Origin: Actinomycetes bacterium
Lineage (GTDB): Bacteria > Actinomycetota > Acidimicrobiia > Acidimicrobiales > RAAP-2
Length of the DNA stretch: 64,000 bases
NCBI GenBank assembly: GCA_021779855.1
Contig: JAJXZW010000005.1
Location: forward strand, 23,949-87,948
Direction: 5' to 3'
This document shows, one piece after another, positions 53,764-57,885 of the stretch (position 1 is its first letter; each line of letters starts with the position of its first letter). The translations under genes were made by a program, and so were the position numbers. The notes beneath the pieces were generated by a model that did no database searches, had not been told where the DNA came from, and was given only the letters and a program-made list of their open reading frames with translations.

Positions 53764-54603
53764 GTGACGCCGCTCGACTTCGTGGTCTCCCTGGCCCTCA
53801 TCTCGGTGGCGGCGGGGGTCCTCGGGTCGCTCGTGGGCCTCGGGGGCGGGGTCGTGATCGTCCCCACCCTCACGCTGCTGTACCACGTGGACATCCGCCT
53901 GGCCATCGGCGCGAGCATCGTCTCGGTGATCGCCACCTCGAGCGGCGCGGCGGCGGCCTACGTCCGCGACCGGATGGCGAACCTGCGCGCCGGGATGTTC
54001 CTCGAGGTCGCCACGACCACCGGGGCGCTGACCGGGGCGTACCTCACGACGCTCCTCCCCGCCCGGTTCCTGTTCGTCTTCTTCGGGCTCATCCTCGCCT
54101 ACTCCTCGGTCGCGACCTTCCGGCGCCGCCACGCCGACGCGCCGCTCACGGCGTCCGACGACCGGCTCGCCAACTACTTCGACCTGCACGGCTCCTACCA
54201 CGACCTGGCGGAGGGTCGCGAGATCCCCTACAAGGTCGTCGGCACCAAGCTCGGACTCTCGATCATGTACGTCGCCGGGCTGGTGAGCGCCCTGCTCGGC
54301 ATCGGCTCGGGGGCGCTCAAGGTACCGGCCATGGACAGCGCGATGCACCTGCCGATGAAGGTCTCCTCGGCGACGAGCAACTTCATGATCGGGGTGACGG
54401 CCGCGGCCAGCGCCGGCGTCTACTTCGTGCGGGGCCAGATCGACCCGATCATCGCCGCCCCGGTGGCCGCGGGCGTCCTGCTCGGGGCGACCGTCGGCGC
54501 CCGGATCCTCGGCCGAGCCGCCAGCAAGACCATCCGGATACTCTTTGTCGTGGTCCTCGTGGTCATCTCGCTCGAGATGCTCCAGAAGGGGGTCCTCGCG
54601 TGA
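53764..54603 (+). CDS. Sulfite exporter TauE/SafE family
   Basis: GSLVGLGGGVVIVP, SALLGIGSGALKVPAM, SSATSNFMIGVTAA. Confidence 0.92.
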   Translation: MTPLDFVVSLALISVAAGVLGSLVGLGGGVVIVPTLTLLYHVDIRLAIGASIVSVIATSSGAAAAYVRDRMANLRAGMFLEVATTTGALTGAYLTTLLPARFLFVFFGLILAYSSVATFRRRHADAPLTASDDRLANYFDLHGSYHDLAEGREIPYKVVGTKLGLSIMYVAGLVSALLGIGSGALKVPAMDSAMHLPMKVSSATSNFMIGVTAAASAGVYFVRGQIDPIIAAPVAAGVLLGATVGARILGRAASKTIRILFVVVLVVISLEMLQKGVLA

Positions 54604-55094
54604 GCGGCGCCGGTCGAGGGCCGGGCCGCCACCCGGCCGGCCCCTCGGGCGCGACGTGGCGGGGCGCGCGTCGGGCGCCCACCCCCGCCGAGGCGGCGCG
54701 CACGGCCCAGAAGGTCCGCCGGGTCGAGCTCGCGATCAGCCTCGTCCTGCGGGTCGGCGTCGTGACGAGCGTGCTCGTCATCGCCGTGGGCCTCGGCCTG
54801 ATGTTCGCCCATCACGGGTCCTACCTGGCGCTGCGCGGGCCCCTCTCCTACCGGGCGCTCACCTCGACCTCGACGTCGTTCCCGCACTCCTTCAGCGCGC
54901 TCGGCCACGCCCTGGCCCACGACGAGGGCCGCGGGGTCGTGGTGCTCGGGGTCTTGATCTTGATCCTCACCCCGGTGCTGCGGGTCGCCGTCGGCGTCGT
55001 GTCCTTCGCCTACGAGAAGGACGCGCCGATGGCCCTCGTCACGCTCTTCGTCCTCGCGGTCCTCGTGGGCTCGTTCTTCCTCGCGGGGGCGTGA
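54600..55094 (+). CDS. DUF1634 membrane protein
   Basis: ISLVLRVGV, GVLILILTPVLRVA; usual partner of TauE; GTGA overlap. Confidence 0.85.
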   Translation: MSGAGRGPGRHPAGPSGATWRGARRAPTPAEAARTAQKVRRVELAISLVLRVGVVTSVLVIAVGLGLMFAHHGSYLALRGPLSYRALTSTSTSFPHSFSALGHALAHDEGRGVVVLGVLILILTPVLRVAVGVVSFAYEKDAPMALVTLFVLAVLVGSFFLAGA

Positions 55095-55843
55095 TGGCGG
55101 GCGTGCTGGACCGGTCGAGCCCGCTGCCCCTCTGGGCCCAGACGGCCGAGGACCTGCGCCGGCGGCTGCTCGAGGGCGAGTTCACCGAGCGCTTCCCCAC
55201 CGACGAGGAGCTGACCCGCGCCTACGGGATCAGCCGCCAGACCGTGCGCGAGGCCGTGCGCCACCTGGCCGCCGAGGGGCTGGTCGTGCGCCAGCGGGGG
55301 CGGGGCTCGTCGGTGACACCCCCGGTCCTCGAGCAGCCCCTGCACTCCCTCTACAGCCTGGCCTCGACGGTGCGCGCCGGGGGCATCGAGGAGCGCAGCG
55401 AGGTCCTCGCCGCGCGACGCCAGCCGGCGGCGGCCGACGTCGCCGCGCACCTCGCCGTCGAGGTCGGCGACGAGGTCGTCTACATCGAGCGGCTCCGCTT
55501 CGCCGGGGCCGAGCCGATCGCCTGGGACCGGTCCTCGCTCCGGGGGGACCGGGCCGGAGGGCTCCTCGAGGCCGACCTCTCCAGCGGTGGGCTCTACGAA
55601 CTCCTCGTCGAGCACTGCGCCCTGCGCATCACCGGGGGCTGGGAGCGCATCCGCCCGGTCGTCCCCGAGCCCGCCGAGCGCCGGCTGCTGCGCCTGCCCC
55701 CGCGGGTGGCGGCCTTCTCGATCGAGCGCCTCGCCCTCGTGGGTGAGACCCCGCTCGAGTGGCGCCGCAGCCTCATCCGGGGCGACCGCTACTCGCTCGT
55801 CGCCCAGTGGCCGCCGGGCCCGCGGCCGAGCGCCGGAGGCTGA
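55094..55843 (+). CDS. GntR family regulator (HutC/UTRA type)
   Basis: FPTDEELTRAYGISRQTVREAV, QRGRGS, UTRA-like C-terminus RGDRY. Confidence 0.92.
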   Translation: MAGVLDRSSPLPLWAQTAEDLRRRLLEGEFTERFPTDEELTRAYGISRQTVREAVRHLAAEGLVVRQRGRGSSVTPPVLEQPLHSLYSLASTVRAGGIEERSEVLAARRQPAAADVAAHLAVEVGDEVVYIERLRFAGAEPIAWDRSSLRGDRAGGLLEADLSSGGLYELLVEHCALRITGGWERIRPVVPEPAERRLLRLPPRVAAFSIERLALVGETPLEWRRSLIRGDRYSLVAQWPPGPRPSAGG

Positions 55844-55857
55844 GCCCCGGGGCCGAG

Positions 55858-55901
55858 CGGCCGCAACACCGCGACGCCGCGGCCCCGCGGTGTTGCGGCC
55901 G
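55858..55901. terminator. 16-bp perfect-stem hairpin after gntR
   Basis: CGGCCGCAACACCGCG-N12-CGCGGTGTTGCGGCCG; no U-tract. Confidence 0.6.
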
Positions 55902-55913
55902 TCGCCCGCTCCT

Positions 55914-55931
55914 GATACCCTGGGGGGTATC
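55914..55931. promoter_or_regulatory. CsoR/RcnR/CstR-family operator
   Basis: GATACCC-TGGG-GGGTATC: ATA/TAT flanks around C- and G-tracts, 32 bp before sqr. Confidence 0.85.
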
Positions 55932-55963
55932 CTCCGGAGGGTCCGGGGCCAGAGAGGCAGAGC

Positions 55964-57421
55964 GTGGCGCGCGTCGTCGTCCTTGGAGCGGGCATCTCGG
56001 GCCACACCGCCGCCCTGCACCTGCGCCGGGCGCTGCCGCGGGACCACGAGGTGGTCGTCGTCTCGCCCAACCGGGACTGGAACTGGATCCCGTCGAACGT
56101 CTGGGTCGGGGTCGGGCGCATGAGCGCCGAGCGGGTCACCTTCCCCCTCGCGCCCGTATACGAGCGCCAGGGGATCGTCTTCCACCAGGCCCGAGCCACG
56201 GCGCTCTTCCCCGAGGGCTCGGACCGCGAGAGCCGTCCCCACGTGGAGGTTGCCTCCACCGAGCCCGAGCGGGACGGCGCGACGGCGCTCGTCCCCTACG
56301 ACTACCTCATCAACGCGACCGGCCCGAAACTGAACTTCGCGGCGACGCCGGGTCTCGGTCCGGACGCCCACACCGCCTCGGTCTGCACGCCGGCCCACGC
56401 CCTCGACGCGGCGCAGGGACTCCGGGGCGTGATCGAGCGGGCCCGTCGCGGCGAGCGCCAGCGCGTCGTCGTCGGCGTCGGCCACGGGACCTGCACCTGC
56501 GAGGGCGCGGCCTTCGAGTATGCGTTCAACGTCGAGCACGAGTTGCGCGTGGCGGGGGTGCGCGACCTGGTCGAGGTCGTCTACTTCACCAACGAGGCCG
56601 AGTTGGGCGACTTCGGGGTGGGCGGGCTCGTGTTCGGCCACGGCGACTTCCAGACGACCTCGCAGCTCTGGACCGAGTCGCTGTTCCGCGAACGCGGGGT
56701 GAAGGCCGTCGTCGGCGCCCACGCCGATCGCATCGACGAGGGCGTCATCCACTACGAGCAGCTCGACGGATCGGAGAACACCCTCTCGTTCGACTTCGCC
56801 ATGCTCCTGCCGCCGTTCCGCGGGGTGGGGCTCTCGGCCTACGACCGCACGGGCGCCGAGGTGACCGACGAGGTGTTCGCCGGGAACGGCTTCATGCGCG
56901 TCGACGCCGACTACGCAGCGAAGTCACCCCAGGAGTGGTCGGCGGCCGACTGGCCCTCGACGTACGAGTCGCCGCGCTACCCCAACGTCTTCGCGGTCGG
57001 CATCGCCTTCGCGCCGCCCCACGCCATCTCGACCCCGCGCACCAGCCCGCGCGGCACGGTGATCTCCCCGGCCCCCCCGCGCACCGGCATGCCCTCGGGC
57101 GTGATGGGCAAGACCGTGGCGCTCACGATCGCCGACCGCATCCGCCACGGCGCCGACACCCGGGCTCGGCGCGCCTCGATGGCCGACATGGGCGCCATCT
57201 GCGTCGCCTCGGCCGGGGTGGGCCTGCGCCGCGGCTCGGCGGCGGCGATGACGATGTACCCCATCGTCCCCGACCCCGGCCGCTTCCCGGGCACCGGCCG
57301 GTCCATTCCGGACACCTTCGGCGAGATCGGCCTCGCCGGCCACTGGATCAAGTACATGCTCCACGTGCTCTTCATCTACAAGGCGAAGGCTCGGCCCTTC
57401 TGGTACCTCATCCCGGAGTAG
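55964..57421 (+). CDS. sqr: Sulfide:quinone oxidoreductase family flavoprotein
   Basis: VVVLGAGISG, WIPSNVWVG, DYLINATG, TCTCEGAAFEY, PPRTGM, ICVASAG, amphipathic C-terminus. Confidence 0.8.
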   Translation: MARVVVLGAGISGHTAALHLRRALPRDHEVVVVSPNRDWNWIPSNVWVGVGRMSAERVTFPLAPVYERQGIVFHQARATALFPEGSDRESRPHVEVASTEPERDGATALVPYDYLINATGPKLNFAATPGLGPDAHTASVCTPAHALDAAQGLRGVIERARRGERQRVVVGVGHGTCTCEGAAFEYAFNVEHELRVAGVRDLVEVVYFTNEAELGDFGVGGLVFGHGDFQTTSQLWTESLFRERGVKAVVGAHADRIDEGVIHYEQLDGSENTLSFDFAMLLPPFRGVGLSAYDRTGAEVTDEVFAGNGFMRVDADYAAKSPQEWSAADWPSTYESPRYPNVFAVGIAFAPPHAISTPRTSPRGTVISPAPPRTGMPSGVMGKTVALTIADRIRHGADTRARRASMADMGAICVASAGVGLRRGSAAAMTMYPIVPDPGRFPGTGRSIPDTFGEIGLAGHWIKYMLHVLFIYKAKARPFWYLIPE

Positions 57422-57424
57422 ACG

Positions 57425-57571
57425 ATGGACAACGTTCACGACACGATCGCCCGCGCCCCGCTGCCCACCCCGCGCACGCTGCGCCGCCGCCGGAACCTCG
57501 CCTACCAGACCTGGCGCTTCGTCGCCACCAACCTCCGTATGATCCGCATGGTCATGAAAGGGAGCCACTGA
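57425..57571 (+). CDS. 48-aa Arg-rich micro-protein
   Basis: MDNVHDTIARAPLPTPRTLRRRRNLAYQTWRFVATNLRMIRMVMKGSH; GGAG 6 nt upstream, GC3-biased codons, TGATG coupling to the next gene. Confidence 0.75.
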   Translation: MDNVHDTIARAPLPTPRTLRRRRNLAYQTWRFVATNLRMIRMVMKGSH

Positions 57572-57885
57572 TGACCGAACGAGCGACGAACGCCTCACCC
57601 GAGGCGCCCCGGGGACCCGGCGCGCTGCGCGACCCGGACCAGGCGCGCGCCGTCGCCACGCGGCTCAAGCGCGCCCAGGGCCAGATCGGCGCCGTCGTGC
57701 GCATGATCGAAGAGGGGCGCAACTGCGAGGAGATCGTGACCCAGATCGCGGCCGTCTCCAAGGCCGTGAACACCGCGGCCTTCACGATGCTCACCTCGAG
57801 CATGCGCGAGTGCCTGGCCGAGAGCACCGCCGAGTCCTCGGCACTGGCCGACCGGCTCCAGAAGCTCTTCTTGAGCCTGGCCTGA
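57571..57885 (+). CDS. CsoR/RcnR-family repressor, CstR-like
   Basis: RLKRAQGQIGAVVRMIEEGRNCEEIVTQIAAV...SSMRECL; Cys52 and Cys81, no His. Confidence 0.9.
   Translation: MTERATNASPEAPRGPGALRDPDQARAVATRLKRAQGQIGAVVRMIEEGRNCEEIVTQIAAVSKAVNTAAFTMLTSSMRECLAESTAESSALADRLQKLFLSLA

Follow-up and report, generated by a model that had tools for sequence, protein, structure and literature searches.

Among the CsoR-family repressors, the closest described counterparts of the system analyzed here are the ScCsoR circuit of Streptomyces coelicolor (Lu et al., 2020; PMC7533328) and the 'actinomycete candidate RSSH sensors' of cluster 3, the cluster of ScCsoR and Rv1766, in a sequence similarity network (Fakhoury et al., 2021; PMC8643695), the likeness being judged by residues and operator. 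ScCsoR binds the sequence ATACCn6GGTAT, requires both Cys37 and Cys66, and is released from DNA by HSnH; it is one tested member of the actinomycete x-C-x-C proteins (PMC7533328), a large and 'largely uncharacterized' group of candidate persulfide (RSSH) sensors that lack the wedge Asn residue (PMC8643695, PMC11672702). The present analysis concerns a 104-residue CsoR-family protein, here termed CstR, and the operator upstream of the sulfide:quinone oxidoreductase (SQR) gene, sqr, in whose operon it is encoded, both found in a 64,000-nucleotide stretch of DNA (the window) from an Actinomycetes bacterium of the RAAP-2 lineage (GenBank assembly GCA_021779855.1, contig JAJXZW010000005.1). The window represents contig 13 of an assembly of 2.06 Mb in 51 contigs, with 73% G+C. 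Comparison of residues, operator, gene neighbors and relatives indicates that this protein is probably a CstR-type sensor of reactive sulfur species (persulfide or polysulfide), which would repress its own operon through the sqr operator.

Comparison with described systems

As in the ScCsoR circuit, an actinobacterial CsoR-family repressor with two Cys residues 29 positions apart and no His is found together with a 16-bp ATACC-n6-GGTAT operator that overlaps promoters, the predicted control extends to the repressor itself and to genes of sulfane-sulfur metabolism, and a TauE exporter is encoded nearby. The enzyme cargo is different, however, consisting of an SQR and a coenzyme A (CoA)-persulfide reductase/rhodanese here and of a persulfide dioxygenase (PDO)-rhodanese fusion and a rhodanese in S. 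coelicolor, and the cstR gene is the third gene of its operon, whereas that of ScCsoR is divergently transcribed. The residue at position Y of the W-X-Y-Z fingerprint also differs, being Ser in the clade of the present protein and Gly in most other actinobacterial homologs sampled.

The Firmicute CstR proteins compared were those of Staphylococcus aureus (Cys31/Cys60), Enterococcus faecalis, Streptococcus pneumoniae and Streptococcus mitis, together with the crystal structures PDB 7MQ1-3, which are assigned to the S. pneumoniae protein (SpCstR) in PMC8643695 although their PDB label reads 'CsoR'. SpCstR is the best match of CstR among solved structures, and the Cys pairs of the two proteins align; a CoA-persulfide reductase (PDB 8A56) is also encoded in the cst operons of E. 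faecalis and the streptococci, the S. aureus cst operon carries sqr and tauE, and the operators are likewise type-2 sites, in which C/G tracts are flanked by TAC/GTA dyads. Against these likenesses stand a sequence identity of only about 30-35%, the wedge Asn of the Firmicute proteins in place of the Ser found here, a 17-bp (N7) operator in S. mitis compared with 16 bp here, and the absence of CstA and CstB from the present locus.

The Cu(I) sensors CsoR/RicR of Mycobacterium tuberculosis, Streptomyces lividans and Bacillus subtilis belong to the same fold family and share the RLxR/Q contact residues and the ATACC/GGTAT operator arms, but the protein described here has no His ligand, its gene has no copZ or copA neighbors, its operator dyads lie 8 bp rather than 9 bp apart, and the genome holds a separate C-H-C CsoR with N7 sites on another contig. 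A further comparison is offered by TTHA1953 of Thermus thermophilus (PMC10318464), which is also a two-Cys CsoR-family repressor of sulfur-oxidation genes, has a thioredoxin gene as its most derepressed target and binds DNA in a manner sensitive to a change of 1 bp in either direction in the operator spacer; it differs in its operator architecture, TACNNTACNNNNGTANNGTA, in a regulon, the Sox pathway, whose genes are remote from that of the regulator, and in showing no response to NaHS in vitro.

The repressor and its residue pattern

The cstR product matches PF02583, the Pfam profile of the CsoR/RcnR family (DUF156), with a score of 79.1 bits (cut-off 22.8) over residues 26-99, and nine CsoR-family members in the PDB match it with E-values of 4e-6 or better. 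The best of these matches is SpCstR (7MQ1, E=5.6e-11), with which Cys52, Ser77 and Cys81 pair at C30, N55 and C59 in the HMMER alignment; in the corresponding alignment with Geobacillus CsoR (4M1P), Ser77 pairs with the Cu-ligand His. The original prediction, made from the DNA sequence alone, had named Cys52 and Cys81 as a pair of cysteines 29 residues apart and had noted Ser at the position of the His of Cu-sensing CsoR, and both points are borne out by these alignments (numbering from Met1 as 1, with Ser77 four residues before Cys81). As the first 51 residues contain neither His nor Cys, and as Ser77 occupies the His position, the W-X-Y-Z fingerprint of the protein is x-C-S-C.

When set against the recognized classes of the family, the protein shows the x-C-x-C pattern: the Y residue is not His, and an N-terminal W ligand is absent. 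The wedge Asn that the Firmicute sensors carry at Y (x-C-N-C, clusters 4 and 10) is replaced by Ser77, which stands opposite N55, so that, narrowly defined, the Firmicute CstR clusters do not include this protein. The C-H-C ligand set of the copper sensors is absent, as are the patterns of RcnR/InrS (H-C-H-H or H-C-H-C, with an N-terminal His) and of FrmR (Pro2, Cys, His): the N-terminus, MTERATNA, has neither His3 nor Pro2, and there is no His at Y or Z. The genomic context agrees with that of the sulfur sensors in two respects, namely a neighborhood of sulfide and sulfane-sulfur detoxification (SQR and CoA-persulfide reductase/rhodanese, with TauE just upstream) and an operator of the 16-bp ScCsoR type, ATACC-n6-GGTAT, ahead of the genes presumed to be regulated, including that of the sensor itself.

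No curated name is available for the protein because it passed none of the NCBIfam models (RicR, 49.8 versus 175 bits required; FrmR, 47 versus 133; RcnR, 31 versus 138), and its database homologs bear generic names only, such as 'FrmR family' or 'metal-sensitive' regulator. The residues discussed above are kept almost without exception: when the best 120 out of 2275 homologs from the database are compared, all 120 have C52 and C81 and 119 have S77, and R31, R34, Q38 and Q58 of the DNA-facing RLxR region are invariant or nearly so. To judge from these sequences, Ser at the Y position marks an x-C-S-C subclade.

The operator and its setting

The perfect 18-bp palindrome upstream of sqr, GATACCCTGGGGGGTATC, was found exactly as originally described (GATACCC-N4-GGGTATC) and ends 33 bp ahead of the sqr GTG start codon (55964). 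It contains the ATACCn6GGTAT form that is bound by ScCsoR (PMC7533328), which bears out the earlier assignment to the sites recognized by this family. Within the window the palindrome is the single match to its own pattern even when 2 mismatches are permitted; under the same tolerance, at least one match was obtained in 12 of 100 dinucleotide shuffles of the window (mean 0.12). On the scale of the whole genome, the exact ATACC-N6-GGTAT sequence occurs twice, compared with about 0.13-0.24 copies expected from base composition and from 30 Markov-1 simulated genomes, and the longer form ATACCC-N4-GGGTAT did not occur in any of those 30 genomes. No second or internal operator for cstR was detected in the operon (spacers from 5 to 8 allowed, with no more than 1 mismatch over the 10 bases of the arms).

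Candidate promoter elements, placed by eye, are listed in Table 1. The candidate -35 and -10 hexamers are separated by 17 nt, with the latter inside the left half-site, while an alternative -10 overlaps the right half-site, so that with either candidate the operator would cover the -10 element. The block GGTGTTGCG around the candidate -35 is kept in relatives whose sequence further upstream differs; in sister lineages, whose operator is identical, the place of TATCCT is taken by TATAAA or TATACA, and the second exact site in the genome, ahead of a thioredoxin gene (trx) on contig 16, has TATAAT in the position equivalent to the alternative -10.

The hairpin that precedes the operator is terminator-like, although it lacks a U tail, and its 3' arm holds the candidate -35 of the sqr promoter; the region 55840-55965 has a fold energy of -79 kcal/mol (z=-3.6). 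The 5' arm of the hairpin is missing from close relatives, and the structure looks like a recent inverted duplication that has given rise to a terminator-like element. Six close relatives carry an identical operator but a different upstream intergenic sequence, hairpin included, and among dozens of relatives the operator is kept and the hairpin is not.

Organization of the operon

Table 1. Features in and around the sqr-cstR operon (window coordinates).
Feature	Coordinates	Strand	Remarks
tauE	53764-54603	+	Pfam family scan
DUF1634	54600-55094	+	
gntR/UTRA	55094-55843	+	
Strong hairpin	55857-55902	+	Perfect 16-17 bp stem-loop 3' of the gntR stop
Candidate -35, TTGCGG	55893-55898	+	17 nt from candidate -10; placed by eye
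Operator palindrome, GATACCC-TGGG-GGGTATC	55914-55931		Core ATACC-N6-GGTAT at 55915-55930; CsoR-family type-2 site
Candidate -10, TACCCT	55916-55921	+	Within left half-site; placed by eye
Alternative -10, TATCCT	55928-55933	+	Overlaps right half-site
sqr, SQR homolog, 485 aa	55964-57421	+	First gene past operator; GTG start
orf48, Arg-rich, 48 aa	57425-57571	+	3 nt past sqr stop; stop overlaps cstR start (TGATG)
cstR, CstR-like repressor, 104 aa	57571-57885	+	PF02583; x-C-S-C
CoA-disulfide/persulfide reductase with C-terminal rhodanese domain, 545 aa	57891-59528	+	5 nt past cstR stop
Cys-rich mini-protein, 55 aa	59597-59764	+	68-bp gap before it; AAAGGAG ribosome-binding site

The intervals between sqr, orf48, cstR and the reductase gene amount to 3 bases, a 1-base overlap and 5 bases, respectively, and with such packing the four genes can hardly be anything but one predicted transcript. 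The first of them, preceded by the Shine-Dalgarno sequence GAGAGG at 55952-55957, encodes a protein of the Pfam family Pyr_redox_2 whose best PDB matches are the SQRs of Acidithiobacillus ferrooxidans and Aquifex (E=4e-34). The reductase combines the Pfam domains Pyr_redox_2, Pyr_redox_dim and Rhodanese, matches the structures 3ICR, 8A56 (the CoA-persulfide reductase of E. faecalis) and 3NTA with E-values of about 1e-159, and has the motifs SYANCGLPYY and CQVGVRG readable in its sequence. No gene for metal efflux or a metal chaperone is found among the neighbors of cstR. The earlier proposal of autoregulation from inside the operon is compatible with this gene packing, with the one operator and with the lack of a second site.

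The product of orf48 has no Pfam or NCBIfam match. Its gene is translationally coupled to cstR here, while in relatives it accompanies sqr and not cstR (L038, L044, L046 and L059), lying beside sqr with 50-92% identity (tblastn), and the protein may be an SQR partner. The gene for the Cys-rich mini-protein, which begins MCHRTTCRSCGRPTWSGCGNH and matched no Pfam or NCBIfam family, is probably the last gene of the operon; the 68-bp gap before it contains neither an operator nor a clear terminator. Homologs of this gene in relatives have their own N6 operator, often divergent from trx, and on these grounds it is placed in the same regulon.

Upstream of the operator, the stop codons of tauE and DUF1634 overlap the start codons of the genes that follow them, and the synteny of tauE, DUF1634 and gntR with the operator is kept in all close relatives. 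A CsoR-type site ahead of these three genes was searched for and none was found; this sulfite-exporter module is probably under the control of its own GntR regulator and separate from cstR.

Conservation and the extent of the regulon

The genome scan suggested along with the original prediction yielded one further exact N6 site, TATACCCCCTGGGGTATA, at 85440-85455 of contig 16 (L002:1501-1516), 37 bp upstream of the thioredoxin gene, where it overlaps a perfect TATAAT. The genes that follow on the minus strand (L002 1464-1093, 1080-682 and 679-2) encode thioredoxin, a DUF302 protein and a PIG-L protein (LmbE/Mca-like), and the regulon predicted for this genome amounts to about nine genes under two operators. 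A separate operator precedes the PIG-L gene in relatives.

Compared with this arrangement, the relatives show a more dispersed one. In 15 same-genus stretches around cstR homologs there are 24 exact N6 sites, each just upstream of a gene, and the genes behind them comprise cstR-coaDR, sqr-orf48, trx, PIG-L, the Cys mini-protein, a 66-aa YgaP-like membrane protein and an MMPL transporter. What is placed under two operators here forms four to seven separately controlled units in the relatives, a difference that fits the small size of the genome. In two of these loci (L043 at 16662 and L046 at 5263) the N6 operator stands directly ahead of a gene for an MMPL-family transporter of 720-760 aa, and in several others it lies upstream of the 66-aa YgaP-like transmembrane protein (PF11127). 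To our knowledge, neither the MMPL transporter nor the YgaP-like transmembrane protein has ever been described as a CstR target. A further locus of the genus, L073 (G010:C119:4000-10500), contains a divergent two-Cys CsoR-family gene (36% identity; ...LTFCVEHPEE) followed by DUF302, with three N6 sites, two of which are about 30 bp apart; this gene may represent a second sulfur-sensor lineage in the genus.

The gene order itself is variable. In two sister lineages, whose CstR proteins are 84-87% identical to that of the window, tauE-DUF1634-gntR is followed by the identical operator and immediately afterwards by cstR-coaDR, without sqr-orf48. The order site-cstR-coaDR is also that of most of the remaining genus, in which sqr-orf48 is found at another place under a site of its own; the order sqr-orf48-cstR-coaDR recurs in one more distant genome (L038). 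The third-gene position of cstR would accordingly be a derived, or at least a variable and lineage-specific, feature, which may have arisen by insertion or by repeated loss. This qualifies the reading of autoregulation from within the operon, since in the sister lineages the same operator stands directly upstream of cstR.

On a wider scale, among 150 genomes of the class, homologs with a residue other than His at Y (mostly Gly) adjoin a 14-bp TACC-N6-GGTA core, and a CoA-disulfide reductase with a rhodanese domain (CoADR-RHD), Trx or DUF302 is often encoded near them. At least 18 genera of the class have the ATACC-N6-GGTAT form beside a homolog, and CoADR-RHD is encoded next to cstR in most relatives.

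The copper paralog and the operator spacing

A second CsoR-family protein, encoded on contig 9 of this genome, has the complete copper signature C-H-C (RYC...HLAHC). Its NCBIfam RicR score is 142 bits, compared with 50 bits for the cstR product, and its gene (L003 1770-1486, minus strand) is followed by that of a permease with C-terminal YHS/TRASH-like Cys motifs. The promoter of this csoR gene contains the sequence ATACCCCCATGGGGTAT, an N7 site of 17 bp (L003:1790-1806), and at a distance of 530 bp there is another N7 site, with one mismatch (L003:2319-2335), upstream of an open reading frame for a cupredoxin-like protein. The ATG annotated as the start of this csoR is probably part of the operator sequence, and a better ribosome-binding site (AAGGAGG) is found ahead of a GTG situated 27 nt downstream.

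The two paralogs are thus associated with operators that differ in length by a single base pair, and the same difference is seen in related genomes. Among loci with an exact site, the His-type homologs have N7 in 7 of 7 cases in the genus and in 15 of 15 in the class. In a more tolerant search, in which the best match with at least 9 of the 10 arm bases was taken within 300 bp upstream of each gene, the His-type loci of the class had N7 in 24 of 24 cases and the non-His loci had N6 in 20 of 23, although such counts overstate the independence of the observations because the compared genomes are related to one another; in control regions, a score of 9/10 was reached once only. Five genomes contain both paralogs, each with its own spacing. 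The described operators of S. lividans Cu-CsoR (TAC-X9-GTA; PMC3902906) and of ScCsoR, in which n6 corresponds to X8 (PMC7533328), show the same two lengths, and for TTHA1953 a change of 1 bp in either direction in the spacer lowers the affinity 10-15-fold (PMC10318464). The N6/N7 rule was not found stated in the literature searched. It is about as likely as not that the 1-bp difference in dyad spacing (TAC-X8-GTA for sulfur, TAC-X9-GTA for copper), between operators whose arms and C/G tracts are otherwise nearly identical, is what keeps the two regulons apart at the level of DNA in Actinomycetes that possess both sensors; what these sequence comparisons show is the correlation.

Alternative explanations

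The proposal that CstR senses persulfides rather than copper or nickel, put forward in the original prediction, gains support from the comparison of residues, neighbors, the C-H-C paralog and conserved sites, and has to be weighed against several other explanations. The most serious of these is that the protein is a general sensor of thiol oxidants and electrophiles (peroxide, disulfide stress, hypochlorite or quinones), which would act through a Cys52-Cys81' disulfide and for which the sulfide genes would be part of a wider regulon. CstR proteins react quickly with H2O2 in vitro, and no CsoR-family sensor specific for reactive oxygen species is yet known (PMC11672702); in vivo, on the other hand, a response to sulfane sulfur is established for the characterized relatives (PMC7533328, PMC8643695). 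The presence of thioredoxin and the LmbE/Mca-like PIG-L protein in the regulon, joined in relatives by the MMPL transporter, would suit such a broader thiol-stress response equally well, whereas the genes most often co-transcribed with the sensor, those of SQR and CoA-persulfide reductase/rhodanese, are sulfide-specific. Thioredoxins, moreover, are plausibly depersulfidases, and on balance we consider a general thiol-stress sensor unlikely. A metal sensor, either a two-Cys Cu(I) protein or one for Ni/Co, that controls a redox operon is highly improbable. The name of the Pfam family, 'metal-sensitive transcriptional repressor', and the identity of the weak NCBIfam matches (RicR, FrmR and RcnR) would speak for it, as would the ability of S. 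aureus CstR to bind Cu(I) in vitro; yet the NCBIfam scores are all far below their cut-offs, 119 of 120 homologs have Ser in place of the His ligand, the N-terminus of the protein has no His or Cys, and the proper C-H-C sensor is encoded elsewhere in the genome, while metal efflux and chaperone genes are missing from the neighborhood of cstR.

The remaining alternatives concern the operator. Since the ATACC...GGTAT arms and C/G tracts are common to both operator types, and the RLxR/Q DNA-binding residues to both proteins, the sqr operator could be bound wholly or in part by the copper-type CsoR of contig 9, and the copper and sulfide responses would then be cross-wired. This is very doubtful in view of the consistent separation of N7 copper sites from N6 sulfur sites, both here and in the 5 genomes that have both paralogs, of the absence of regulatory crosstalk between the S. 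aureus paralogs in cells (PMC8643695), and of the cost in affinity of a 1-bp spacer change for the related TTHA1953. That the palindrome is a chance occurrence or part of the terminator of the upstream gene, with no role as an operator, is scarcely credible: it does lie 12 nt past the strong hairpin, can form a small stem itself and has shuffled counterparts when 2 mismatches are tolerated, but its two exact copies, compared with about 0.2 expected genome-wide, both lie in promoter regions of sulfur or thiol genes, and it is the site and not the hairpin that is maintained in dozens of relatives.

Several observations weigh against the persulfide-sensor assignment itself or against parts of it, in addition to the reactivity with H2O2 and the thiol genes considered above. 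A consensus scanner applied to positions 55700-56100 returned neither a sigma-70 promoter nor an intrinsic terminator, and the placement of the promoter is for this reason a matter of inspection by eye and comparison with relatives. Because the Firmicute wedge Asn is replaced by Ser, the cysteine chemistry may differ from that of the Firmicute proteins, a difference that has been raised in general terms for the actinomycete candidate sensors without this residue (PMC11672702). Finally, the spacing rule describes a correlation seen in genomes that are related to one another, has an exception in L126, where an x-C-T-C protein is encoded beside an N7 site, and fails outside the class, the cst operator of S. 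mitis being of the N7 type (PMC8643695).

Proposed mechanism and implications

On the basis of the observed site, gene order, residue pattern, conservation, regulon and spacing correlation, we infer a persulfide-responsive circuit in which DNA binding, the identity of the inducer and the cysteine chemistry are drawn by analogy from the characterized relatives. In the reduced state, the repressor would bind the 16-bp type-2 operator ATACCCTGGGGGGTAT, probably with two tetramers per site, the arrangement found in those relatives, and, positioned over the -10 region ahead of sqr, would block RNA polymerase and so repress the sqr-orf48-cstR-CoA-persulfide reductase/rhodanese transcript, probably together with the Cys mini-protein gene, controlling its own synthesis from the third gene position. 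A rise in sulfane sulfur would lead to persulfidation of the N-terminal Cys52, which could either remain as Cys-SSH, as reported for ScCsoR, or form a di-, tri- or tetrasulfide with Cys81 of the neighboring protomer, as in the Firmicute CstRs. The modified repressor would then leave the DNA, allowing SQR and the CoA-persulfide reductase/sulfurtransferase to be made, along with thioredoxin, DUF302 and PIG-L from the second operator. As cstR lies inside the induced transcript, induction would also replenish the repressor, a feedback of the kind described for ScCsoR. Insulation from the copper regulon would be provided both by the absence of a His ligand from the sensor and by the spacing of the operator dyads, X8 here and X9 for the copper paralog.

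The kind of system to which this locus appears to belong, that of the actinomycete x-C-x-C CsoR-family persulfide-sensor candidates, is already described, and what the comparison would add to it are the enzyme cargo, Ser at the Y position and the difference in operator spacing. If the spacing is causal, the length of an operator alone would predict which paralog controls a gene, permitting the prediction of regulons from sequence, and the rule would offer a simple and portable route to orthogonal repressor/operator pairs; it would also explain why there is no crosstalk between two DNA-binding proteins that are nearly identical and share a cytoplasm. For the organism, the assignment would define a compact and readable reactive-sulfur regulon in a genome of 2 Mb whose group is represented by metagenomes only, and it would extend the ScCsoR-type circuit to streamlined, uncultured actinobacteria that employ other enzymes, namely SQR and CoA-persulfide reductase and not PDO.

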